DNA from: Candidatus Altiarchaeales archaeon
GTDB lineage: Archaea; Altiarchaeota; Altiarchaeia; IMC4; SCGC-AAA252-I15
Direction: 5' to 3'
NCBI GenBank assembly: GCA_014727915.1
Contig: WJMO01000001.1
Span: 1-62,005, forward strand
DNA length: 62,005 nucleotides
The translations under genes and the position numbers were made by a program. Of this stretch, positions 48,961 to 60,711 are shown in pieces. Positions within the stretch are counted from its first letter, which is position 1. Each line of letters begins with the position of its first letter. The notes under the pieces are model-generated. The model was not told the DNA's origin, ran no database searches, and saw nothing but the letters and a program-made list of their open reading frames with translations.

Positions 48961-49037
48961 GAAGACATGCATATCCAAGCTCGCCTCTTGTATTTTTTTA
49001 ACTGTTTTTTATATTTGTTTGCACATATTTGGTTCCT

Positions 49038-50270
49038 ATGAGTCTACAGGTAACCGAACTGCTATTCATCCTGATGGTCTCCTGGTATGCCGGCAGGTTC
49101 TTCCGGCGTAGACTGGATATGCCGCCCATGCTGGGGGAGTTGATCGCGGGTTTGTTGTTCGGCCCTACTGTCCTGGGTTGGATCGAGTCTAGCGAGTTCA
49201 TCGATTTTCTCGCTGAACTGGGGATTTTCTTTTTGATGTTCTATGCTGGTTTGGAGACCGACCCCAAGCTGTTCTTCAAGAACATCAAACCATCGATTCT
49301 GGTGGGCATCCTGGGTTTTGCTATACCCCTGGGATTGGGTTATTACGGGACTTTATGGTTCATGCCCGGGGCCACAAGCATTCAGGCCCTGTTCGTGGGT
49401 CTGGGTTTGAGCATCACCGCGATAGCGGTGAACGCCCGCATACTTATGGACCTGAGCCTATGCAACTCAAGGATAGGGAATATCCTCATCGGCTCGGCTG
49501 TCGTCGACGACGTCCTGTCTCTCGGGTTTTTTTCCGCTGTCGTCAAGACAGTCGAGGTAGGGTATTTTTCGTATAATACTTTCTTATTCTCTCTCGCATA
49601 TGTCCTGGCCTTTTTCGCCATCACCTATTTTATCGGGAAGATTGTTCTGCCCTACGTCAACAAGTACTATCTTGAAGGGGGAGGCCACGGATTCACCTTC
49701 GCCTTGTTGACTGCCTTTTTGTTCGCCTTGATCGGGGAGGCGCTGGGGTTGCACGTCATCATCGGCGCGTTCTTCGCCGGCTTGTTCGTGCGTGAGGAGA
49801 TAAAAAGACAGGATGTCCTGGATGCGTTAAACGACCGGTTGATGACCATCAGCTACGGGTTTCTAGGGCCGATTTTTTTCGTGTCTTTATCCTTCCACGT
49901 CGTTTTGGGCTTGATATTGGAGTACATAGAGTTCTTGACCATAGTCTTGATAATCGCTTTTATCGGGAAATTCGCAGGCTCATACGCGGGTGGCTGGCTT
50001 GCAGGGCTTAAAAGAGAGGAGAACGCCGTTGTAGCCATGGGCATGAACGGACGGGGGGCCGTGGAACTAATCCTCGTGGGTGTGGGGATAAATCTTGGAG
50101 TCCTTAACAAAGAAATCTCATCCATCCTGGTGTCAATGGCATTCATCACCACATTCCTAACCCCCATTGGATTCAAATTCCTTTTGGAGCGCTTTAATCT
50201 GGATTCCTGCATGATAAACCCAGACCAGGAGAAAGACACGCCAACCAGAGAGGGGATAAACCAGGGTTAG
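49038..50270 (+). CDS. CPA2 cation/proton antiporter
   Basis: ~13 TM, AVVDD, GAFFAG, GRGAVELI. Confidence 0.9.
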   Translation: MSLQVTELLFILMVSWYAGRFFRRRLDMPPMLGELIAGLLFGPTVLGWIESSEFIDFLAELGIFFLMFYAGLETDPKLFFKNIKPSILVGILGFAIPLGLGYYGTLWFMPGATSIQALFVGLGLSITAIAVNARILMDLSLCNSRIGNILIGSAVVDDVLSLGFFSAVVKTVEVGYFSYNTFLFSLAYVLAFFAITYFIGKIVLPYVNKYYLEGGGHGFTFALLTAFLFALIGEALGLHVIIGAFFAGLFVREEIKRQDVLDALNDRLMTISYGFLGPIFFVSLSFHVVLGLILEYIEFLTIVLIIAFIGKFAGSYAGGWLAGLKREENAVVAMGMNGRGAVELILVGVGINLGVLNKEISSILVSMAFITTFLTPIGFKFLLERFNLDSCMINPDQEKDTPTREGINQG

Positions 50271-50388
50271 CCCCGCCAGGATCCCACTCGCTTTCAGCTC
50301 GCTTATCCTGGGAGAGTTCGTGAGCCACCAATGCTTCGATGTGACCTTATTTAGCCCCGCCAGGATTATGCCGGAAAAGTCCGAATCC
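50268..50388. repeat. 121-bp structured repeat, copy 1, containing two copies of the tRNA-Gln 3' end
   Basis: 120/121 identical to 52707-52827; TAGCCCCGCCAGGAT at 50268 and 50352. Confidence 0.95.
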
Positions 50389-50489
50389 CGGTTACAGACA
50401 TAGAGTAAAAGACTAAAAAGGCCAGGTTAGAGGGGTGGAAAAGTGGTTTTTGAGTTTCTTTTTAGTAGTTATGTATTAGATTATAGAGC

Positions 50490-51329
50490 ATGGAAAAGGG
50501 ATTGAGAAAGGAAATTAAATTTTCAATATTAAGAAGATTAACAGGACGGCAAAAGCCTTCTAAAAATAGAATAATCGCATCTATAGTTATCGTTATTGTT
50601 GTGTTGATTTTAACTTTTTTAGTTGGATTTTATTTCAACCAGTTTTTAACTAAACCAAGTGCAAACGTTGTTTTCCACCCATATACCGGGGATAATGAGA
50701 GCATACACATCCAGATTACAAATGGCCCAAAAAAGTTAACAGATGTTTCCTTGAAAGTAAAAACATGCCATATGAATGATTTTGAGTATATTCCTGTTCC
50801 GGATTTAATCGAGTATGAAACATATCCCGTTTCCTTGAACGATAAAGAAACTGCTTATGCACTGAAGAAGATTTTTCAAAAGGTTGTATGCGACCCAATG
50901 AATACCAGCACAAATCCAGAGTGTTGGATTAAAACATATATAATAAATGGAACGGCTTATGCACCCCCACAAAAATTTAATAAATATCGGTGTGGTTACT
51001 GTAAATATACATTAATTTTAAAGTCTAATGAATTTTCAAAAAATATAACGGATTTCTTCTTCTCCCCAATCGAAGTCAACACATACAGCTTGGATATTAC
51101 TCCCGAAACAGTACTCGATGTAAACGAAGAAGAAATGGAATTTTTTAGCCCAATTGCAATCAGATTATTTAGTCCATATGATGTCTGCATGCTTGAAACT
51201 GATGGAAAGTACGAAAGATGTAAAGACCAACCAATAATACCAGTTATCCAGAAACCCATTACCATGAGCATATCCCCAACCAACAAATCTTTGGGCAATA
51301 TAACTATAACGATAAAACAAAACACTTAA
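50490..51329 (+). CDS. Single-TM hypothetical protein, AT-rich
   Basis: Basic N-terminus, one TM, Cys-containing external domain. Confidence 0.75.
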   Translation: MEKGLRKEIKFSILRRLTGRQKPSKNRIIASIVIVIVVLILTFLVGFYFNQFLTKPSANVVFHPYTGDNESIHIQITNGPKKLTDVSLKVKTCHMNDFEYIPVPDLIEYETYPVSLNDKETAYALKKIFQKVVCDPMNTSTNPECWIKTYIINGTAYAPPQKFNKYRCGYCKYTLILKSNEFSKNITDFFFSPIEVNTYSLDITPETVLDVNEEEMEFFSPIAIRLFSPYDVCMLETDGKYERCKDQPIIPVIQKPITMSISPTNKSLGNITITIKQNT

Positions 51330-51449
51330 GAATAACTGAAAATCATTAGAATTAATACTTGGATAATTGGGTGAGGGGCTAGGGTTGTGCCCCGCACCCT
51401 GGTTGCCTTCTCCGGACCCTATATGTTAAGCATGTACTCCTGAACATGA

Positions 51450-51469
51450 TATACTTTAATTAAAGTATA
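51450..51469. promoter_or_regulatory. Perfect 20-bp palindrome upstream of the AAA_14 ATPase gene
   Basis: TATACTTTAATTAAAGTATA, with flanking TGAAC/GTTCA. Confidence 0.55.
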
Positions 51470-51522
51470 GTTCAATTTTAGTAGGATATTTATTTAAATA
51501 TAGTTGATTCTAAGTATAATAC

Positions 51523-52686
51523 ATGTACGTTGAAAGGGATGTAGAGGAACACTTCGACAAGGTAACGGAGATATACAATATTGTCGCAGTGGTAGGAGCC
51601 AGACAGAGTGGTAAAACCACGTTACTTAGAAAGAAGCTGGGTGAATTGGATGGGGAGTATGTGACACTTGACGACCCTGACGCACGGGACATGTTCAACG
51701 AAGACATAAAAAAATTCGAGAAACAGTACATTGTATCAAATAAGATAACTGGAATCGACGAGGCACAATACGGACAAGATGCAGGAATTAAACTCAAGTA
51801 TCTTGCAGATAAAGGATACAAATTATGGATTACATCATCCAGTGAAACGCTTTTGAGTAAAGATGTTTTATCCCACCTGGTAGGAAGAGTTTCAATAATA
51901 AAACTCTATCCGTTCTCGCTCCAAGAAATCAAAAAAGCAAAAAAAACAAGAGAGCTAACCGATAAGATTAAGCAGAGATTAGTTTGGGAACACGCAGCTT
52001 ATGGCGGATATCCTAAAGTAGTGCTGGAAGACGACACTGAATCAAGAAAAATCATCCTTCGTGACTTAATCAATACAATGCTATTGAAAGACGTCTCTCA
52101 AACATTCTCGATAGACGACTTAACCAGCCTAGAAAAACTCGCAAAGTATCTGGCAGTCAACACGGGAAACATAATCAGCTATGAAAACATCACAAGCTAC
52201 TTGGATATAGCCTTCCAGACACTTAAAAAGTATTTGGATGCGATGGAAAAAAGCTATATCACAAAAACCATACAGCCATACTACACGAACAAAAACAAGG
52301 AGCTTACAAAAAAACCAAGGATATACTTCATCGACACTGGGCTAAGAAACACACTCATTAACAATTACCCAACAGACGTGCAGGGAAAAGACTTTGAAAA
52401 CTACGTACTAGCCGAATTACTAAAACAGGGACATCAGGTAAAATACTGGCGCACCAAAAGCAAAGCGGAAGTCGACTTCATCATAGAAAAAGACAATATT
52501 CTCATACCAATAGAAGTGAAGACAACTACCGCCAAAACCACATCAGGCCTTAAATCATTCATAAAAACATACAAACCGGAAAAAGCCTATATCACCACAT
52601 ACAAAAGCCGGACAAAACAAGAAGAGTATAACGGCTGCACAATCACGGCCACAGACATACACGGACTATTAAAAAACATATCGTAG
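51523..52686 (+). CDS. AAA_14 / DUF4143 ATPase (COG1373-like)
   Basis: GARQSGKT, IDEAQ, YGGYP, YFIDTGL, EVDFII...PIEVK. Confidence 0.9.
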   Translation: MYVERDVEEHFDKVTEIYNIVAVVGARQSGKTTLLRKKLGELDGEYVTLDDPDARDMFNEDIKKFEKQYIVSNKITGIDEAQYGQDAGIKLKYLADKGYKLWITSSSETLLSKDVLSHLVGRVSIIKLYPFSLQEIKKAKKTRELTDKIKQRLVWEHAAYGGYPKVVLEDDTESRKIILRDLINTMLLKDVSQTFSIDDLTSLEKLAKYLAVNTGNIISYENITSYLDIAFQTLKKYLDAMEKSYITKTIQPYYTNKNKELTKKPRIYFIDTGLRNTLINNYPTDVQGKDFENYVLAELLKQGHQVKYWRTKSKAEVDFIIEKDNILIPIEVKTTTAKTTSGLKSFIKTYKPEKAYITTYKSRTKQEEYNGCTITATDIHGLLKNIS

Positions 52687-52721
52687 GGGTTCGAACTATT
52701 TTGAAATAGCCCCGCCAGGAT
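52683..52721. repeat. 39-bp repeat (tRNA-Gln 3' end plus trailer)
   Basis: 38/39 identical to 57288-57326. Confidence 0.92.
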
Positions 52722-52827
52722 CCCACTCGCTTTCAGCTCGCTTATCCTAGGAGAGTTCGTGAGCCACCAATGCTTCGATGTGACCTTATTTAGCCCCGCC
52801 AGGATTATGCCGGAAAAGTCCGAATCC
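52707..52827. repeat. 121-bp structured repeat, copy 2
   Basis: One mismatch to copy 1; TAGCCCCGCCAGGAT at 52707 and 52791. Confidence 0.95.
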
Positions 52828-52916
52828 TCACATACGAATTAAGAGCATGTGATTATAAACCAGGGGATAGAGCGGGAGAAAAGTTATTTATCATAATAAG
52901 TAAGCATTCTAAAAGG

Positions 52917-54080
52917 TTAGATATAGGATAATCCTCTCTCTTTGAATACTTCCTTTGCAAATTCTTTAGTCAATCTTGGAACCTCTTTTTCTAATCCACG
53001 ATCCAATACAGAATCACACCGTACTATTATCTCTCTCGGAGTTCCTTGAGTAAGTTTAAATAGGTACTCCACAAAATCATCAGTGAAAGGTATCAAAGGC
53101 TCGTTTTTATATTTGCCTCTGACTCTATCGTAACTTAATCTCTTTTCTATTAAGTTGATGGTATCTTTTTCAGTTAGAGGATCTAAGGAAATCAATTCGG
53201 TTATTCTTTCCTTCAAGGCATTAATCGGTCCGCCTGTTTTTCTTTCTTTATCTCCCAAAGTAGTGAGCTTCTTCCATCCATCACTTGATACTGCGATAAA
53301 TAAAGCCATATTTGCAGCATTTGATTTCAGGCTATCTGGAATGGCAATTTGAAGATCATATAAACTTCTAAAAAAGGCTAAGACTGTTGATTGTTGTGAT
53401 TTTGATAAAACACTAAATAGATATTCAAATTCATCAACACAAATAACTAGGCTTTGAAATCCAGAAGAACCAAGAATATATAACAGACCAATCAGATACT
53501 CTTTGGCTATTCTAACTCTATCAATCTTTCTTATAACGCCTATTTTATTTAGTTCATTTTTCGTGGGTGAAACATCACCTACTAAAAAAGAAATTGCTAA
53601 GTTGCGTAAAGGATTTTTTCTAGCTGGGTAAAGTGATGTCTGGATTTCACCAGTGAATATTCTTTGAAAAACATTGCCAACGTCAGGATAGATTTTTTTT
53701 AATTCATTAATGGTGTCTGTTTCGACTTTTATCTCATCAAAGTTAATTTCTTTAAGAACTCTTTGTATGAAATCGACTTCAGGTTTGGAAATTTTTTCTT
53801 CAGATTGAAGTGTCAGGTAGATGGGATATGCCCCCTTATTGTTAGCTCTTTCTTTAACGTCTAACAAAGATAAGGTTTTTCCCATCCCATAGTTACCTAC
53901 AAAAAAAACAAGAAAATTAGTTTTAGATGTTTTCATACTATCCTCAAGAATTTTATCATACGTTTTCTGTTCCCTCTTCCGGCTGACAATCAACTTTACA
54001 TCGTCTTTAGTCGCAGTCCTGGATTTAAATAGTTGACTGTCTTTAAGACCATATTCTTTTTGAAGGAAACTATCTTTCAT
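52917..54080 (-). CDS. AAA+ P-loop ATPase (reminiscent of BrxD/DUF2791)
   Basis: GNYGMGKT Walker A, VICVDEFE Walker B, ALKERI, PFT...TQGTPRE lid. Confidence 0.82.
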   Translation of the reverse strand: MKDSFLQKEYGLKDSQLFKSRTATKDDVKLIVSRKREQKTYDKILEDSMKTSKTNFLVFFVGNYGMGKTLSLLDVKERANNKGAYPIYLTLQSEEKISKPEVDFIQRVLKEINFDEIKVETDTINELKKIYPDVGNVFQRIFTGEIQTSLYPARKNPLRNLAISFLVGDVSPTKNELNKIGVIRKIDRVRIAKEYLIGLLYILGSSGFQSLVICVDEFEYLFSVLSKSQQSTVLAFFRSLYDLQIAIPDSLKSNAANMALFIAVSSDGWKKLTTLGDKERKTGGPINALKERITELISLDPLTEKDTINLIEKRLSYDRVRGKYKNEPLIPFTDDFVEYLFKLTQGTPREIIVRCDSVLDRGLEKEVPRLTKEFAKEVFKERGLSYI

Positions 54081-54952
54081 ATTTTATCTTTTGAGTATTT
54101 GATATATATCGTTTTATAGTATTCATTTCCATGCTTGAATAACCTGTCTCCAATGCCTCCAAGGCCGATTGGAAGGCCAAGAGAGATTATATAATTATTA
54201 CTTGTAAGGGGGATTGACCTTAATAATTCATCAAATTGGTATTCTGTTAAAATCAGCCCATGATTGTTATAAAAATCTACAGCAACTAGTTCCCGTAATT
54301 TAGTAATATCCGCCCCACCTGCTTTTTCTGAAGGGGATAACAAATCATAGTTTTTGAATAGTATTGCTCTAAAATTATCACGTTTAGAGGTTACATCTAA
54401 ATCTCGCTTTGCTTCACTTAGCCCATTATTATTTAATGAGATGTATGTCCCTTTATTTTTCAATACTATTAAACCACAGCCATCCAACAGTCCTAGCCAT
54501 TTGTTAATACGTTCTTCTATTTGTCTTTTTGAGGGACCCCCTATTTTTGAAGTTAATTTCTTAAAGAAATCTTCTTTGGAGATAAAACCTTGAGTCTCAG
54601 TACTTTCAATCAACATAGTACTAAATCCTATGTTGTCATCCAATTCCAGTAGTAATGCTCTAAAAACCCTTAACGTCTCAGTATTATTCTGATTTAATGA
54701 TTCCAAAACAAGTTTTCCATTGGCACTTGGTTTTATCAAATCCTCATATCCAATAATCAAACCCAAATATCTGAGAGAAGGGATAACCATACCTCTAAAC
54801 GTGCTTTTTTCCGAGGTATCAGGATATAACCTTAAAACGCAGTCTCTCTGATTTTCCCTATCATATGGGTATTTGTCAAAACAAACTAGGGATTCGATTA
54901 AATGTTTAATTCTTATCTCCTTTATTATGGGCAATATTTTTTTATCTGTCAT
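54077..54952 (-). CDS. Hypothetical protein, probably tandem winged-helix domains
   Basis: PSLRYLGLI and WLGLLDGCGLI resemble wHTH helix-to-wing ends; ATGA-coupled on both sides. Confidence 0.6.
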   Translation of the reverse strand: MTDKKILPIIKEIRIKHLIESLVCFDKYPYDRENQRDCVLRLYPDTSEKSTFRGMVIPSLRYLGLIIGYEDLIKPSANGKLVLESLNQNNTETLRVFRALLLELDDNIGFSTMLIESTETQGFISKEDFFKKLTSKIGGPSKRQIEERINKWLGLLDGCGLIVLKNKGTYISLNNNGLSEAKRDLDVTSKRDNFRAILFKNYDLLSPSEKAGGADITKLRELVAVDFYNNHGLILTEYQFDELLRSIPLTSNNYIISLGLPIGLGGIGDRLFKHGNEYYKTIYIKYSKDKI

Positions 54953-55947
54953 GGTTTTAAACCATCTCCTACACAGTGATCATAAAATTTACAGTATTGA
55001 CAACCGCTCCTATCTTCAGGTAAAGGCGGTGAATTATCTTTAGAGATTATGTCATACGCTTCATTTCTCACATCTAAAAACCAAGTTCTGGCTTCATCAT
55101 CTATTGGGAAGATATATATCTGGGGGGAAGTAATAGGTTTAAAGAATCTAGTGTGCCGAGTAGGGAGGTAATACACTATCCCAAAATTTATATCTTCATT
55201 CTTTTCATTTTCGTAAGCTAATGCATAGCCTATGCATGTAAGGAAATAGTGATCTTCTATACCGCCAACCCCAGATTTTATATCACCGATAGCTTTAAAG
55301 TCACGTAATAAAAAATCTGGGCGAACATTTTCACTTATGCCTATCTGTTTAGGGTTTGGATTTAATAGTATGGGGTCTACTTTATCAAGAATTAGGTGTT
55401 TATGATCCAATTCGGTTTTTTTAGTTAACATCTTTCTATGGAAAAGTCTCGAAAACAACTCTTCTCTTCCAGCAAAATTCAACAACTTTAAAAATCGCTC
55501 GGGATTTTCTTCTTCAGTGCCACTAAGTCTTTCCAAACCGGAAAAATCTCCGGAATTATCTAGTTTAAATTCATTTGAAAATTTATCTAATTTTTTCCGT
55601 ATAGTACTATATTTGCCGATATTTCCCGCAGTTATAGATTTATCATGAGCATTGACGATATATTTTTCAGTAATAGTACCTGCCTTTCGCCCCCAAGTTG
55701 GTCGAGCAGAAGTGGAAGAAAGCCTATTTTTTCCTTTATTAAAATACAAATTTCTTCGTGATGGACAAAGTCTAGAGGAAATATCACTAACAGAAAGGGG
55801 ACGTATTTCATCAGTAGCTAGACCTAGAGAAAATCTTCCTGTCAAGAACGTATCTCGTTTATAACCCCTTAACTGTATATTTGAAACATCTTGATTTAAT
55901 TCCTTATCTGGTCGTGACAAGTTCCACGCTGTTATTACTTTATACAT
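54949..55947 (-). CDS. Cas4/Csa1-like PD-(D/E)xK nuclease with a 4-Cys Fe-S site
   Basis: LSVSDISSRLCPSRR, RPD, GDIK, GYALAYE, C-terminal CxxCxxxxxC. Confidence 0.82.
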   Translation of the reverse strand: MYKVITAWNLSRPDKELNQDVSNIQLRGYKRDTFLTGRFSLGLATDEIRPLSVSDISSRLCPSRRNLYFNKGKNRLSSTSARPTWGRKAGTITEKYIVNAHDKSITAGNIGKYSTIRKKLDKFSNEFKLDNSGDFSGLERLSGTEEENPERFLKLLNFAGREELFSRLFHRKMLTKKTELDHKHLILDKVDPILLNPNPKQIGISENVRPDFLLRDFKAIGDIKSGVGGIEDHYFLTCIGYALAYENEKNEDINFGIVYYLPTRHTRFFKPITSPQIYIFPIDDEARTWFLDVRNEAYDIISKDNSPPLPEDRSGCQYCKFYDHCVGDGLKP

Positions 55948-55965
55948 TTCATACCACGAGTTTTA

Positions 55966-57222
55966 TTAACTACATCTAAATTGGAGTATGTATTCTTCGG
56001 AAATTGGATTGGTGGAACTCCTTCTGATTGGTGTTTGAACTCTGTTTTTTATTGAATCACATATGGGTGTTTCAGCTAACTGCCATTCTTCTTCCTCAGC
56101 TATGTTTACCAATACCCTTGAGAGGGGTACTTTAATCCCAGATACTTCGGGGTGTCCTATAACGAATATGGCTTTTCCTTGAGGGTTTATTTTTTCTCGA
56201 AGTTCTCTGAATGTTAGCCTTATATCTTGGACATATGATAGGATGCTTTCAAGTCTTTTTTCAGACCTTGAACGAATAGACGTAACCCACCTAGATTTCT
56301 TCTCTTTGTTGGGTAGTGTTTTCTCGGAAATATCGTGATGATATGAGGCTCTGCCAATGATTGTTTTTCTGATAAATTCTCCATCATCCTCGTTTTCAAG
56401 ACCGAAGAAACGTGTCTGTAAAGAAACAGCCCTCCTATAATTGATGCCATCACCGTATGGGGGGGAGGTTATTACTAAATCAAAATTATCTATCGGCCAA
56501 CTGGAATTATTTTTTGAGTCACCTGTAGACAGTTTAACATTGGGGTTGGGAAACTTGGAGTTTGAAAATATTTTTTGAGCTAGAAGTATTTTTTCCACAC
56601 GCTTTTTGAATTTCTCCAATATCTCTTCCTGAGAGAAATCAGGGGCTACCGGTGATCGTTTTGAGCGAGTAGGGACTATCACTCCTGAATCAGCAGCTGA
56701 AACATCCCAGACCACTTGAGATAAAGCCGTAAAGAGAGCAGGATAAACATACTTATTTTGATAAGTATTAATCCAGTCACGTAAACTCATGAGATAGCCA
56801 TATACTTCATCTTTAAACCAGATGTCTCTATTTTCCCAGGAATCCAGGCCATTAAATGTTTGGATGTCTTCCGCATCTAAGTCTAAAGCAGTTTGTAGTC
56901 TTTTTAGATTCTGATTGTTCAACTTAGTCAATTTAGCTTTGGCGATTAAGACAGGAACCCTTAGTATGTCAACACCTGAAACACTGAATCCGTAGGATCT
57001 TGCAACCAGTAATGTGGTTCCAGAACCACAAAATGGATCAAAAACCTGTATTTTATCTGGTTCTTTATCAAATTCATTGCATGCGTTTTTTAAAACATAA
57101 TTCGCAATTTTGGGGGTCATTTTAGCAGGATATCTATGGATATGATCTGCATCAAGAATATCGTTAGACATACCCTGATTTAACTCTGTTTCTTCAAGAA
57201 ACGAAGATTCAAAATCTCCCAT
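55966..57222 (-). CDS. DNA methyltransferase, N4-cytosine type, alpha motif order
   Basis: HRYPAKM, FDPFCGSGTT (motif I) before ITSPPY (motif IV); start ATG 57222 or 57243. Confidence 0.88.
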   Translation of the reverse strand: MGDFESSFLEETELNQGMSNDILDADHIHRYPAKMTPKIANYVLKNACNEFDKEPDKIQVFDPFCGSGTTLLVARSYGFSVSGVDILRVPVLIAKAKLTKLNNQNLKRLQTALDLDAEDIQTFNGLDSWENRDIWFKDEVYGYLMSLRDWINTYQNKYVYPALFTALSQVVWDVSAADSGVIVPTRSKRSPVAPDFSQEEILEKFKKRVEKILLAQKIFSNSKFPNPNVKLSTGDSKNNSSWPIDNFDLVITSPPYGDGINYRRAVSLQTRFFGLENEDDGEFIRKTIIGRASYHHDISEKTLPNKEKKSRWVTSIRSRSEKRLESILSYVQDIRLTFRELREKINPQGKAIFVIGHPEVSGIKVPLSRVLVNIAEEEEWQLAETPICDSIKNRVQTPIRRSSTNPISEEYILQFRCS

Positions 57223-57311
57223 ATACAAGAATTGTACATACAAATTAAAATAAGTTCGATGGAAGAAAAAAAGGGGAATACGCAGATGTAGGGATTCGAA
57301 CTATTTTGAAA

Positions 57312-57384
57312 TAGCCCCGCCAGGATTCGAACCTGGGTCCGCGGTTCCAAAGACCGCTAGGATTGGCCACTACCCTACGGGGCT
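57312..57384 (-). tRNA. tRNA-Gln(TTG)
   Basis: AGCCCCG/CGGGGCT acceptor, GCGGT-CT-TTG-GA-ACCGC anticodon arm, CCAGG-TTCGAAT-CCTGG T-arm; CCA not encoded. Confidence 0.97.
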
Positions 57385-57442
57385 GAGTAGATTGTTCTTT
57401 CTTTTGGTACAGGTTTTCTTTCTTTTGAAGAAAGAAAAGGTG

Positions 57443-57590
57443 TGCGCCCACCGGGACTCGAACCCGGGCCATAAGCTAACCTCGGAACCTGTCCGCTGGA
57501 ACATTATTTTCCGCGGGCGCTTTTGCGCCCCGAAGGGGCGGTAAAAGGGTCCCTTGGAAGGCTTAGGTCCTACCACTAGACTATGGACGC
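57443..57590 (-). tRNA. tRNA-Gly(TCC) with 77-nt intron (57478-57554) at position 37/38
   Basis: GCGTCCA/TGGGCGC acceptor, TAAGC-CT-TCC-A[intron]A-GCTTA, BHB motif (CUUC/GAGG helix, 3-nt bulges, GGGACC/GGTTCC outer helix). Confidence 0.93.
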
Positions 57591-57619
57591 ATTTTATTGA
57601 TTTGATGTTATACGTGTTA

Positions 57620-57630
57620 CTGGTTTAAAT
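57620..57630 (-). promoter_or_regulatory. TATA-box-like element of the tRNA-Gly/tRNA-Gln unit
   Basis: TTTAAACCAG on the minus strand ~35 nt upstream of tRNA-Gly. Confidence 0.5.
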
Positions 57631-57654
57631 GGATTTTTATTCCATGTTCAGAGG

Positions 57655-57763
57655 GACCGAGGCTTTTAGCCGAGGTCGCTCACGCGTGCGCACGCAGCGA
57701 GGCGTGCGACTATGGACGCGTTTTGGGATTACGATTGAATATATACGGAATACTGGTTTTTAA
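57655..57763 (-). other. Duplicated tRNA-Gly promoter + first 12 nt fused to a GC-rich hairpin element (possible ncRNA or recombination site)
   Basis: GCGTCCATAGTC at 57719-57708 equals tRNA-Gly nt 1-12; upstream AAACCAGTA..CGTATA is also shared. Confidence 0.55.
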
Positions 57764-57825
57764 GCGGTTATTCTTTCTTTGTGGGCGGCGCGCCTTTCTT
57801 TATTTTTAAGAAAGAAAGGGGGTAG

Positions 57826-60711
57826 TCAGAGTTTTTTGTTGATTTCGCTGAGCTCTTTTTTGATCTTTTCGGCTGATTTTAGGGTTTCGGTGGTGTTTAT
57901 GTCCTTCTCCCCTGTTTCTTCCGGTTTATCCGTTTTTTCCTCTGGTGTCTTGGCTTCTTCTTCCAGTGGTTTTTCCTTTTTTATTATCTCCTTCTGTGGT
58001 TTTTTCCTGGCTTTGGATATCAGCTCGTCCAGTTTGGAGGCTACCGTCTCCTCTGTGGGTTTTTGTTCTGTTTTTGGCTCTTCCGTGGGGATTTCCGGTT
58101 TGGGTTCCCCTGTTTCTTCGGGTTTTTCCTCGGGGGTTTCGTCAGGTAGTTCGAGTTTCAGCTCTCCCGCGTCTTCGGGTTTTTCCTCGGGGGTTTCGCC
58201 TGTGGTTTCCGGCTTTTCTCCTTTGGGCTTTTTCGGTTCTTTGGTTTCTTCTCCGCCGAATAGGTCCAGCTCTTCTGCCTCATCGTCGTCTACGGGGAGC
58301 TTTATTATCACCTCTCCCTGGTCGGCGGAGGGGGTCTCTTCTTTGGCTTCCTCGTCGGGCAGGGGTATTCCGGTTATCTCTTCCAGGGCTGGCATGCCCT
58401 CGCCGAATATCTCATCCTCTGAGGGTGCCTTCTCGTCTTCCTCCAGTTTGTCGGGCAGTAGCGAAGTGTAGTCCACTCCTGTTTCCTCTCCTTTCTTGAG
58501 ATTCTTCCTCTCCCGGAGCTTGGCTATAATGAAGATGATCGCGAGCAGGGTCAGGAGTGCCGCGAGCCCGGCTATTATCATGATCGGGTACTGGCTTGTG
58601 TCCCTGCCGTCCTCTTCGGTTGTCTGTTCCGCTCCTATCTCTAGTATGAGCTCTCCGCATTTGATGCTCCCGTCCCGGTCGTCTATGCTCCGGAACAGCT
58701 GCCGTGCCTTTTCGGCGTGGTCGAGTGCCAGCTCGTTCTCCTGTTTTGTGTAGTAGTCGACTGCGGTGGCGTAGTGTTGCTGGGCTTCCACCCCCACTTG
58801 GCATATGCGTTTGAGCGACTGTGTCTTGGCCAGGTTCTCCTCGTCCGAGACGTTCATGTAGAGTGTCTCGGCTTTTTCGGCTTCGGCTATGCACTCCTGG
58901 TAGTTTGAGGTCTCGTACCTGTTGTCTGCGTTTGTGTAGTGCTGGTCTGCCGCCGTTTTGGCTGCGATCTCATCAAGCTTGTCCTCTATGTTCGACAGTA
59001 GGGTTAGCGTGGTGGATATCATCCCCGAGTCCCCGAGCGTCGTGTAGGACTGTCTGGCCAAGGTGGCTTTCTCCCTGGCTCCCGTGTAGTTGCCGCTACG
59101 GTATAGGCGCATGGCCATCTCGTAGTTCTCGTTGGCCTTCGGATATTCCTTGGTGTTTTCCACGAGCTTGGTGGCTTTCTCTATCCCGGGTGTGTAGTTG
59201 AGCAGCTCGTATATCTCCAGCGACTTGTGGCTGTATACGCTGCCTTGGACGTAGTCCTTCGCCCGGGAGTATTCGAGGGCCCGCTGGTAGAAGTATAGGG
59301 CGTCCAGCTGGTCTATGGCGTTGTTCAACAGTCTGAGGGCCTTGTCTGTCCGGTTGCTGTCGTCCAGCTCCATGTATATCCGCTCAGACTCGGAGGCCAG
59401 TGCCTTGGCTGTCTCGTAGTCGCCTTCGCTGTAGTTGTCCTCGGCCAGCTGGTATAGGCGGCCAGCCTCCAGGTATTCAAGCGAGCTGTTGAGGTACTCG
59501 AGGGTTTTCATCCGGTATTCGGTGTCGTTCAGCTCCGCGTATGCTTCGGCTGCTGCCATGGCATGGTCCCTCGCCTCTCCGAAGTCCCCGGAAAGGTAGT
59601 ATTCCATTGTCTTGTTCAGGTTCTCGTCCGCTTGCAGGTCCTTCAGGTAGTCGGGGTTCATCTCGTAGGCTGTCGTCTGCCTGGCACCCAAGACCACAAG
59701 GTTGGTCTTGTCCGGGGTTGTGAGCTGGCCTGCCGCCATGTCGGTGATCGGGTAGTCTACCTCGTATGCGTATTTTTCCCTTCCGTTGTGGTCTAGTGCG
59801 TATACGAACTCCCCCGATGCTATGAAGACTTCGGGTATGTTGTCGCCGTCCACGTCTCCTGCGGCTATTGTGGGCTTCAAAGCAGGGAGCCGGTACTCCC
59901 ATAGGAGCGCCCCCCCTGCCGATATCGCATATAGTGTGTCATTTTCAGTTGCTGCGAGCAGCTCCCCCAGTCCGTCGTTGTTTATGTCGTATGCGTAGGC
60001 GGCCGTAACCGGGCCTGTCGGGTACCGGAGTATCCTGCCCCCAGTGCCCTTGAGGACGTGGAGGTAGTCGTGGGAGCCGGCGATGACCTCCTTCTTGTCG
60101 TCCCGGTTTATGTCCTCGGCGTAGACGGAATGGACAGAGCCCTCGGTCGTGTAAGTCCACTTAAGCGAACCGTCGGATTTTATCAGGTACACTTTCCCGC
60201 TCCTGGAGCCTGAAACGACTTCCTTGCCTTCGTCGCCTGTTATGTCATCGATGTGTATGGAGAGGGAGTACCCGTATCCGCGGTGCACCCACTTGAGCAT
60301 GTTGTTCTCCAGTGTGGGATCGCGTTCTAGAACGAATATGGGGTGGTTGTACTCTGACATCCCGGCGCTGCAGGTCTTGGCCTCAACAACCGAGCCGACG
60401 ACTATGTCAGTGTTGCCGTTTCCGTCTATGTCATCGACCATCATGGTGTTCGGGGAGTTCTGAGGCCATATTACGGATATCTTGTTCCGCCATTTAAGGG
60501 TGCTGTCGTTGTCGAGTAGGTAGGCATAGCTTCCCTGCTCCCTGAACAAGCCGATCGTCACGTCCTGTATGCCATCACCGTCGACGTCCCTGACTTCCAG
60601 GGTGTCGCCGCCGAGTGTGACGTCCCAGACGGGCGTGAGCGACGGGTATGACGCGGCAGCCGCCAGACCGGTTAAAACCAGCATCAACAGTGCTGTTTTA
60701 ACTTTTGCCAT
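57826..60711 (-). CDS. Type I membrane protein: FG-GAP/PQQ-like beta-propeller, TPR-like helical stalk, TM, acidic Glu/Lys/Pro-rich tail
   Basis: Signal peptide; DVDGDG, DIDGNG, DINNDG repeats; A..Y helical repeats; ETPEEKPE x2. Confidence 0.85.
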   Translation of the reverse strand: MAKVKTALLMLVLTGLAAAASYPSLTPVWDVTLGGDTLEVRDVDGDGIQDVTIGLFREQGSYAYLLDNDSTLKWRNKISVIWPQNSPNTMMVDDIDGNGNTDIVVGSVVEAKTCSAGMSEYNHPIFVLERDPTLENNMLKWVHRGYGYSLSIHIDDITGDEGKEVVSGSRSGKVYLIKSDGSLKWTYTTEGSVHSVYAEDINRDDKKEVIAGSHDYLHVLKGTGGRILRYPTGPVTAAYAYDINNDGLGELLAATENDTLYAISAGGALLWEYRLPALKPTIAAGDVDGDNIPEVFIASGEFVYALDHNGREKYAYEVDYPITDMAAGQLTTPDKTNLVVLGARQTTAYEMNPDYLKDLQADENLNKTMEYYLSGDFGEARDHAMAAAEAYAELNDTEYRMKTLEYLNSSLEYLEAGRLYQLAEDNYSEGDYETAKALASESERIYMELDDSNRTDKALRLLNNAIDQLDALYFYQRALEYSRAKDYVQGSVYSHKSLEIYELLNYTPGIEKATKLVENTKEYPKANENYEMAMRLYRSGNYTGAREKATLARQSYTTLGDSGMISTTLTLLSNIEDKLDEIAAKTAADQHYTNADNRYETSNYQECIAEAEKAETLYMNVSDEENLAKTQSLKRICQVGVEAQQHYATAVDYYTKQENELALDHAEKARQLFRSIDDRDGSIKCGELILEIGAEQTTEEDGRDTSQYPIMIIAGLAALLTLLAIIFIIAKLRERKNLKKGEETGVDYTSLLPDKLEEDEKAPSEDEIFGEGMPALEEITGIPLPDEEAKEETPSADQGEVIIKLPVDDDEAEELDLFGGEETKEPKKPKGEKPETTGETPEEKPEDAGELKLELPDETPEEKPEETGEPKPEIPTEEPKTEQKPTEETVASKLDELISKARKKPQKEIIKKEKPLEEEAKTPEEKTDKPEETGEKDINTTETLKSAEKIKKELSEINKKL

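Follow-up and report, generated by a model that had tools for sequence, protein, structure and literature searches.

We analysed a stretch of 62,005 nucleotides from a Candidatus Altiarchaeales archaeon (assembly GCA_014727915.1, contig WJMO01000001.1, positions 1 to 62,005), called here the window, which is the entire contig C13 of the source assembly (G000; 1,808,974 bp, 13 contigs, 90.6% complete); this assembly looks like a metagenome-assembled genome (MAG). The subject is an array lying next to the 3' end of a tRNA-Gln(TTG) gene, in which two low-GC cassettes with unrelated cargo genes and almost identical ends are stacked between copies of the tRNA 3' end. Coordinates of the tRNA gene, the repeated elements and the cargo genes are collected in Table 1.

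The core 15-mer TAGCCCCGCCAGGAT (plus strand), which forms the tRNA-Gln gene's 3' end, has exactly five copies in the whole assembly, all in the window, starting at 50268, 50352, 52707, 52791 and 57312; the reversed pattern searched as a control had no match in the assembly, and the number expected by chance is about 0.003 (arithmetic). This exact search bore out the five tRNA-Gln ends counted by the original prediction, which had been made from the letters of the window alone, and a repeat comparison likewise upheld its near-identical ends: positions 50268-50388 and 52707-52827 are identical at 120/121 sites (99%), with no third copy of this block in the G000 assembly, and positions 52683-52721 and 57288-57326 at 38/39 (97%). 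The 121-bp block is composite, being made of a core (15), a 69-nt module that we call M, a second core (15) and a 22-nt element end, X. Moving away from the tRNA along its strand, one meets in turn tRNA-core, Y-cargo 2-X, core-M-core, Y-cargo 1-X, core-M-core and then a host gene, where Y is the opposite element end of 24 nt. The junction X22-core-M-core-Y24 is complete at 52683-52827; the outer end of the array has only X-core-M-core, and the tRNA side only core-Y. A coding origin of these repeats was rejected, since stops were met in all frames inspected when X-core-M-core-Y was read by eye on both strands.

Table 1. The tRNA-Gln cassette array of the window and its cargo genes
Feature	Position	Strand	Basis
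tRNA-Gln(TTG), the anchor; terminal 15 nt (57312-57326) are the repeated core	57312-57384	minus	ARAGORN; Rfam RF00005, 59.9 bits
Y arm of cassette 2, 24 nt, directly after the tRNA; T-loop-like motif GTTCGAATCCCTAC on the tRNA strand	57288-57311	minus	38/39 repeat; identical 24 nt in G001
Cassette 2, ~4.5 kb, low GC, 4-gene operon	52806-57311	minus	Open reading frames (ORFs), Pfam, PADLOC, NCBIfam, GC profile
X arm of cassette 2; inner 22 nt (52806-52827) common to cassette 1; inverted T-loop-like motif GAGGATTCGGAC	52806-52900	minus	Repeat comparison; G005 match
Core between X arm of cassette 2 and M2	52791-52805	minus	15-mer search
M2, cargo-less 69-nt module between two cores	52722-52790	minus	Repeats; aligned with M of G001, G013 and G004
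Core between M2 and Y arm of cassette 1	52707-52721	minus	15-mer search
Y arm of cassette 1, 24 nt; contains the stop codon of the ATPase gene	52683-52706	minus	Repeats, ORFs
Cassette 1, ~2.3 kb, low GC, two genes; X arm at 50367-50388	50367-52706	plus	ORFs, Pfam, PADLOC
P block between the two genes of cassette 1	51385-51420	minus	Sequence
Core between X arm of cassette 1 and M1	50352-50366	minus	15-mer search
M1, second copy of the 69-nt module	50283-50351	minus	Repeats
Terminal core	50268-50282	minus	15-mer search, ORFs, Pfam
Cassette 2: N6_N4 DNA methylase	55966-57243	minus	Pfam; PADLOC MTase_II 2e-38
Cassette 2: Csa1/Cas4-like nuclease	54949-55947	minus	Pfam 2e-21
Cassette 2: 291-aa protein, no family match	54077-54952	minus	Pfam, PADLOC, NCBIfam
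Cassette 2: BrxC/D-like P-loop ATPase	52917-54080	minus	Pfam 3e-11
Cassette 1: 279-aa protein with N-terminal hydrophobic segment (membrane-anchored), no Pfam match	50490-51329	plus	ORFs, Pfam
Cassette 1: AAA_14+DUF4143 ATPase, PADLOC candidate PDC-S01 5e-78	51523-52686	plus	Pfam, PADLOC

The GC profile of the window separates the cargo (0.30-0.40, summarised as 33-39%) from its flanks (0.48-0.59, summarised as 50-58%), and the cargo is foreign low-GC DNA. On the outer side the plus-strand TAG of the terminal core (50268-50270) serves as the stop codon of a convergent host gene for a Na+/H+ exchanger (49029-50270); in an empty state the end of this gene would overlap the convergent 3' end of tRNA-Gln. 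The two cargos are unrelated and lie in opposite orientation, one on the plus and the other on the minus strand, and the ORF and family scans (Pfam, PADLOC) agree here with the earlier description of a four-gene operon versus a transmembrane protein plus AAA_14 ATPase. Starts and stops overlap between genes of the operon, which looks like an uncharacterised restriction/BREX-like defence system, PADLOC naming single genes and no system. For its 291-aa product the nearest named neighbours in the ESM Atlas, by features and by structure, are winged-helix-type DNA-binding proteins (TM score 0.43-0.52; leads only), and on these weak leads it may be a tandem winged-helix protein; an AlphaFold model from the single sequence was unusable (mean pLDDT, the predicted local distance difference test, 37.6). 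In the window, the non-coding stretches between arms and cargo genes measure only 68-100 nt.

To place the array in its phylum we compared 61 representative genomes (phylum and class are the same here). Nine of the 61 have a contig on which the core pattern CTGGCGGGGYTA is present more than once, and G004 is a tenth with a variant second core. Cargo of kilobase scale lies between the cores in six genomes, all of family f1 (that of the window), which together hold 11 complete core-to-core cargo intervals with units of 0.8-4.5 kb: two cassettes each in G000 and G001, four cassettes plus two tandem M modules in G013, one cassette in G016, and one cassette with one partial in both G020 and G005. 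The cargo in relatives comprises PIN/VapBC in three cases, toxins resembling ParE/RelE and YoeB that have small partners, nucleotidyltransferases of the DUF6036 family, a pair of HVO_A0114 and DUF7718, a methyltransferase and membrane proteins. G013, G005 and G020, too, have genes in both orientations. An empty site was found in G004, in which tRNA-Gln-core is followed by an 86-nt homologue of M, the second core and host DNA, and double cores with short spacers (95-140 nt apart, start to start) occur in G027, G030 and G060, representing three further families, and on contig C261 of G020 (f1). The cassette family of the original prediction, having standard ends and swappable cargo and stacking at tRNA-Gln, is therefore supported by relatives in which this tRNA is followed by other cargos and by another number of cassettes; the repeats are also present outside this genome, and the gene set is not invariant. 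In keyword literature searches, which were not exhaustive, we found no description of tRNA-Gln cassette arrays in this phylum.

The same comparison bears on the assembly itself, because two population variants with alternative cargo might have been joined in tandem by mistake. The source looks like a MAG, and contigs of relatives do break in the repeats, as in the G001 contig C25 that begins inside an M module. The M-core-Y junction at 52700-52730, however, is unique, and two variants with a single cassette each would share just the 15-nt core there, which is shorter than the usual assembly k-mer, so that their reads could not yield this junction. It was moreover assembled independently in G001, and multi-unit arrays were assembled independently in G013, and we regard an artefact of this type as extremely improbable.

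The arms of the cassettes carry motifs that resemble the T-loop of the tRNA. On the tRNA strand the sequence of Y is TTTCAAAATA-GTTCGAAYCCCTAC, and that of X, after which the core begins, is GWGAGGATTCGGAC-TTTTCCGGCATA. The Y motif is a direct-orientation copy of the T-loop region of tRNA-Gln itself, GGTTCGAATCC, and the X motif is its inverse, and the arms thus are imperfect inverted repeats (11/14 in the motif, by eye). Seven of the eight cargo cassettes of G000, G001 and G013 have the conserved right-end motif GGAWTCRRAC at a distance of about 14 nt from the core. The X arm of cassette 2 matches, with 95% identity over about 92 nt, an element end of G005, a genome of a different genus, where the adjoining gene is unrelated; the Na+/H+ exchanger orthologs of the two genomes, in comparison, share 63% protein identity. 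Homology to the tRNA varies by junction, being 15-16 bp in the window and 13 to ~21 nt across genomes, and this variation fits att homology better than a target duplication of fixed length. A further conserved element, the P block, has the consensus (A)GGWTYCGGAGAAGGCAAC.AGGGTGCGGGGCA and is non-coding; it was found in three genomes of two genera (51385-51420 of the window, ~2190-2230 of locus L024 and ~1450-1495 of L026), where the counterparts in G001 and G005 are by-eye readings that a mismatch-only pattern search missed because they differ by indels. In G047 of family f5 (contig C100, 19812-19851; L211 1501-1540), the sequence TGTGAGGATTCGGACTATTCTGGCATAGT is an arm of X type that adjoins ...CCCGGCGGGAGCA, the 3' end of a tRNA of another type; the arm family is used here with a second target, and the element family has thus changed targets.

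A direct repeat of 15-16 bp next to a T-arm recalls family 2 casposons of the Aciduliprofundum boonei type. A Cas1-type casposase acting in trans would insert linear units beside the TpsiC region of the tRNA with a target duplication of ~15 bp, and each new unit would be added at the tRNA side, much as a CRISPR array gains its spacers. The direct repeat described for the casposon of A. boonei measures 15 bp and lies at the 3' end of a tRNA; the element has terminal inverted repeats, and its minimal target consists of the duplicated segment and 18 bp that cover the TpsiC region of tRNA-Pro. The 15-16-bp repeat of the window, its imperfect terminal inverted repeats and its target adjoining the T-arm may correspond to these, and the Cas4-like nuclease and the methylase of cargo 2 belong to gene types also present in casposons (PMC5137440). 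In contrast, five of the six cargo-bearing genomes (G000, G013, G016, G020 and G005) have no match to Cas1 (PF01867), of which G001 has one copy (PolB was not searched for), the left terminus is inconstant, its motif missing in three of the eight cassettes, the repeat length differs between junctions and genomes, and M shares neither terminus of the cassettes and yet was duplicated with them. We consider a casposase unlikely.

Similarity between genomes gives information on the movement of the units. The ATPase cassettes of G000 and G001 are identical at 350/387 amino acids (90%) and at ~89% of nucleotides including the promoter region, with 23-24 of the 24 nt in Y, and their neighbours differ. 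EF-2, which is among the slowest-evolving proteins, is identical at 622/727 positions (86%) between the same two genomes. Other shared cargos are the DUF6036 nucleotidyltransferase cassette of G001 and G005 (113/158, 72%) and the RelE-like toxin of G005 and G020 (60/87, 69%). Some cassettes recur in different genera and exceed host genes in similarity, and these few comparisons favour horizontal spread of cassettes and arms over simple vertical inheritance.

The opposite view would be that the array is an immobile fossil record, in which autonomous islands each lost an integrase independently and similar ends reflect common descent and gene conversion. A review of archaeal recombinases, in its treatment of integrase-less integrated elements, ascribes these to loss of the integrase after integration (PMC8371274). 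Decay is visible in a deletion of G001 and in the P block, scars resembling M are widespread (also in Pacearchaeota, Micrarchaeota and Methanosarcinales), and no helper was found in the genomes or in the IMG/VR and metagenome scans described below. Against this, none of the 11 complete cargo intervals in six genomes keeps an integrase, and the 68-100 nt available in the window leave no room for a fragment of one; arms are conserved across genera above the level of a host gene (95% of nucleotides versus 63% of amino acids), the ATPase cassette exceeds EF-2 between G000 and G001 (90% versus 86% of amino acids), and the same cassettes have differing neighbours among genomes. Independent fossilisation is a possible but rather unlikely reading of the locus.

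We then turn to the enzyme. The absence of an integrase from the window, as originally predicted, is confirmed with Pfam profiles, in that no match was obtained for PF00589 (Phage_integrase), PF16795 (SSV-type), PF00239 (Resolvase), PF01797 (Y1 transposase) or PF01867 (Cas1), DDE transposases and replication genes not having been searched with models. No contig with a tRNA-Gln core in the 61 genomes has a PF00589 match, and a Pfam scan met no recombinase among 24 ORFs associated with cassettes, including one that lies a little beyond an array. In the whole of G000 there is no serine recombinase, SSV-type integrase, Y1 transposase or Cas1, and the only tyrosine recombinases are two paralogous integrases of ~400 aa (PF00589 at ~1e-20, below the XerA cut-off). 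Each lies in an island of its own, one at tRNA-Asp (contig C4, 3007-10155; L030) and the other at an intron-containing tRNA beside EF-1alpha (contig C3, ~113960-123800; L031), and both islands have low GC, occupy the extreme 3' end of the tRNA with an 11-12-nt core, carry the integrase beside the tRNA and show at the far end an X-core, a short spacer and a second core. In the 78-nt spacer of the tRNA-Asp island, a Y-like end can be seen to run into an X-like end; proteins of this island were read by eye as Vsr-like, Dcm-like and GHKL-ATPase-like.

The islands therefore offer a model within the same genome, being low-GC, defence-type insertions at a tRNA 3' end with an ends-only spacer and a second core, but they differ from the arrays in carrying a ~400-aa tyrosine integrase beside the tRNA and in belonging to another arm family. 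As the arms at their own tRNAs differ, the two integrases are unlikely to be the helper, and we rejected them as direct helpers. Two other candidates were dismissed: a core match near an integrase on contig C12 of G039 is a chance match within a gene, and an 11-nt match upstream of a XerA-like gene on contig C56 of G005 belongs to the conserved upstream site of that gene. Pattern scans of IMG/VR gave no match save one chance match inside a coding region, and a metagenome scan with CCCCGCCAGN{10,16}GTYYGAWTCC, a pattern that was too loose, returned 119 loci, none of them with CCTGGCGGGGYTA. Of the predicted cassettes mobilised in trans, the cassette family stands; the mobilisation does not have the same footing, as no recombinase accompanies the arrays and the integrases of G000 use other arms.

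On balance we favour, with a probability of roughly 0.55, a scheme in which non-autonomous integrative mini-elements accreted in tandem at the tRNA-Gln 3' end through the action of a tyrosine integrase that came from elsewhere, in trans. Each unit would be a compact piece of low-GC DNA, from one gene to a four-gene operon of defence or toxin-antitoxin type, which lacks a recombinase and keeps the sequences needed in cis, namely the right arm X, the left arm Y and a core of 13-16 nt shared with the tRNA 3' end. A recombinase acting in trans, most probably a tyrosine integrase encoded by a plasmid, virus or island that serves as helper and lies outside these assemblies, would join the core of a circular unit to the tRNA-proximal core; with integration there, the newest unit would adjoin the tRNA and older units would be pushed outward. 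Any two direct cores may then recombine, so that one unit or several together could be excised, and M, already present at the empty site, would be carried along when excision uses outer cores. The layout of core, X, M and Y is the pattern expected from two integrations of X-core-M-core-Y circles at the tRNA core; we infer circular intermediates and the order of insertion, as well as action in trans and the enzyme class. We prefer a tyrosine integrase in trans because the islands of the same genome are built in this manner, because the homology varies from 13 to ~21 nt and the arms are long, and because M was co-duplicated with the cassettes and bacterial accretion of cis-mobilizable elements (CIMEs) offers a precise precedent. 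Long conserved arms are typical of attP.

The M module fits into this scheme as a cargo-less unit consisting of ends only, and we read it as an internally deleted element or an old attR scar. The spacer of the tRNA-Asp island, with its Y-like and X-like ends, gives a concrete origin for such a module. X-core-M-core-Y would be repeated as one 145-bp block because a pre-existing M travels along when outer cores recombine, and this co-carriage accounts for a block that two simple X-core-Y integrations would not yield. According to an alignment with a mean column identity of 73%, genera g1 and g4 have homologous M modules. A long hairpin is formed in g4 between the 3' half of M and the next core (its first 10 nt); M and core make a 10-bp inverted repeat there, CCGCCAGGAT / ATCCTGGCGG, and the inner stem of the hairpin covaries among copies (AAAAAGCGC/GCGCTTTTT, AAAAAGTCC/GGACTTTTT and AAAAAACTC/GAGTTTTTT). 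When 12 M-type modules from nine genomes were folded against 200 shuffles, 9/12 beat all shuffles, with z from -2.98 to -9.43. M as a known RNA family was dropped, as an Rfam E-value scan of 49800-58200 gave only two tRNAs and two sub-threshold chance matches.

Footprints of similar form, a tRNA followed by a spacer of ~70-100 nt and a second tRNA 3' end, were observed outside the phylum at tRNA-Gln of Pacearchaeota (L185 5906-6202, three tandem 95-nt units; L194 3499-3591), Micrarchaeota (L199 434-547) and Methanosarcinales (L183 3020-3124), and at tRNA-Arg of a MAG of Bacteroidia (L186 846-949). In L194 and L199 the sequence beyond the second core repeats the start of the spacer.

Conserved flanks such as M and the tRNA in many genomes raise another explanation, namely a hot spot independent of an element recombinase, where cargo would be exchanged by homologous recombination through the tRNA and core-M-core, or where the host XerA would act on the T-arm palindrome in the way that bacterial integrative mobile elements exploiting Xer recombination (IMEX) use XerCD. 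XerA-like genes are the commonest recombinase in the phylum, and g4 has the 10-bp inverted repeat of M and core mentioned above. Homologous exchange, however, leaves the tandem duplication of X-core-M-core-Y and the element-specific arms shared across genera unexplained, and no XerA-like gene is present in the G000 and G001 assemblies, and this explanation appears to us very unlikely. In relatives whose contig starts were inspected (L047-L056, e.g., G013:C17:1-300, G023:C5, G010:C76, G024:C22, G015:C109 and G005:C56) the XerA-like gene (~270-300 aa) starts 150-350 nt from the start of its contig, and most of these genes are preceded by a conserved hairpin site of the type GTTTAAC..TTAAACGCA..TGCGTTTAA, which may represent a site of dif-like or attI-like type at which assemblies are interrupted.

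Several results weigh against accretion by an integrase in trans. Neither an integrase-bearing element nor any other autonomous relative with the X and Y arms was found in the 61 genomes or the IMG/VR pattern scans, and the one metagenome scan did not give an integrase-bearing element either. The array-bearing genomes G016 and G020 have no PF00589 match, G013 has only a XerA-like one, and both integrase islands of G000 share the arm GTTSTTGGTCTYCTGTTGGTGGTTT plus core, whose sequence bears no relation to X of the tRNA-Gln cassettes. Of the eight cassettes of G000, G001 and G013, just five have the Y motif. The M of the window itself folds no better than its shuffles (z = +0.42, 130/200 shuffles doing as well), for which reason we dropped M as a structured element at this locus, and the modules of G001 and of contig C185 of G020 are marginal. 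Signs of decay belong here as well: a single deletion has removed from the ATPase cassette of G001 its membrane-protein gene together with X, one core and the 5' part of M, and the P block looks like a degenerate junction of X arm and core; on this resemblance to an internal junction, cassette 1 may be two fused single-gene cassettes. Finally, the genomes compared are mostly incomplete MAGs (57-97% complete), so that absences are weak evidence, and plasmids and viruses are usually not binned; for both reasons the helper may simply be missing from the data.

Among known systems, chromosomal integrons are ordered arrays of small cassettes with many toxin-antitoxin genes. A repeated recombination site bounds each cassette, the array grows at an anchored end, and the cassettes, for the most part promoterless, share one orientation behind a single promoter. 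The tRNA-Gln arrays likewise are ordered small cassettes with accessory cargo, repeated boundary sites and one anchored end. They differ in having no intI (PF00589 is absent from the window and every array contig in the 61 genomes), in junctions that are direct repeats of ATCCTGGCGGGGCTA, with no GTTRRRY/RYYYAAC pair and no attC hairpins (by sequence reading), and in the mixed orientation of their genes, which have upstream regions of their own and sometimes form multi-gene operons. The array is not an integron, and the term integron-like, used in the original prediction, holds only as an analogy of outcome, the lack of intI and of an attC-type site and the mixed orientation speaking against any closer relation.

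The CIMEs of Streptococcus and other bacteria have lost or lack integration genes, keep attL and attR, and accrete in tandem at tRNA 3' ends through site-specific recombination (PMC5704250). Units of the arrays are similarly flanked by direct repeats from the 3' end of the target gene and have no integration or transfer genes of their own (Pfam, PADLOC and NCBIfam). In contrast to CIMEs, the host is archaeal, the units are far smaller (0.8-4.5 kb) and often consist of a single gene or a toxin-antitoxin pair, no array was seen with a functional integrase-bearing partner, descent from conjugative elements is not evident, and the arms carry T-loop-like inverted motifs. Tycheposons, the cargo-carrying elements of tRNA-linked genomic islands of Prochlorococcus, also integrate at tRNA genes, where successive insertions push older elements inward and leave partial tRNAs and remnants scattered; the preprint describing them screened elements that carry an integrase, and those it describes encode a tyrosine or serine recombinase, many together with replication genes (bioRxiv 10.1101/2020.12.28.424599), whereas units of the arrays encode no site-specific recombinase. 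Elements with an SSV-type integrase are different too, because G000 has no PF16795 match and the non-coding stretches of the window's units leave no room for int(N) or int(C). Three features set the arrays apart from their nearest known counterparts, namely CIMEs, tycheposon islands and the tandem or integrase-less integrated elements of archaea: the small scale of the unit, the lack of a recombinase in 11 intervals of six genomes, and standardised arms that mimic the T-loop.

If the units are mobilised in trans, they would form a platform for gene exchange in a little-studied, streamlined archaeal phylum, in which defence and toxin-antitoxin genes would move as single-gene packets with no cost of a recombinase per packet, and this would be functional convergence with integrons and with CIME accretion in bacteria. 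A more far-reaching proposal, which we consider doubtful, is that tRNA-Gln is the anchor of a cassette platform in the phylum and, as the short footprints suggest, perhaps in DPANN archaea and Methanosarcinales, where standardised mini-cassettes with arms mimicking the T-loop are captured, stacked and shuffled at the terminal 15 nt of the tRNA by a dedicated recombinase, chromosomal or of a helper, that is never borne by a cassette; this would be an independent integron-like system or a casposase-driven array of gene-sized spacers parallel to CRISPR adaptation. The footprints of tRNA, short spacer and second end in Pacearchaeota, Micrarchaeota and Methanosarcinales suggest that the phenomenon may exceed one family. 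The conserved arms and the 15-nt core are defined substrates for biochemical work and a simple search key for the missing helper.

A minor observation concerns the upstream side of the anchor. Another tRNA gene, which has a long intron and measures 148 nt overall (57443-57590, minus strand), lies 58 nt upstream of tRNA-Gln; it was missed by ARAGORN and detected with Rfam at 52.7 bits, and relatives have tRNA-Gly(TCC) at the upstream position.

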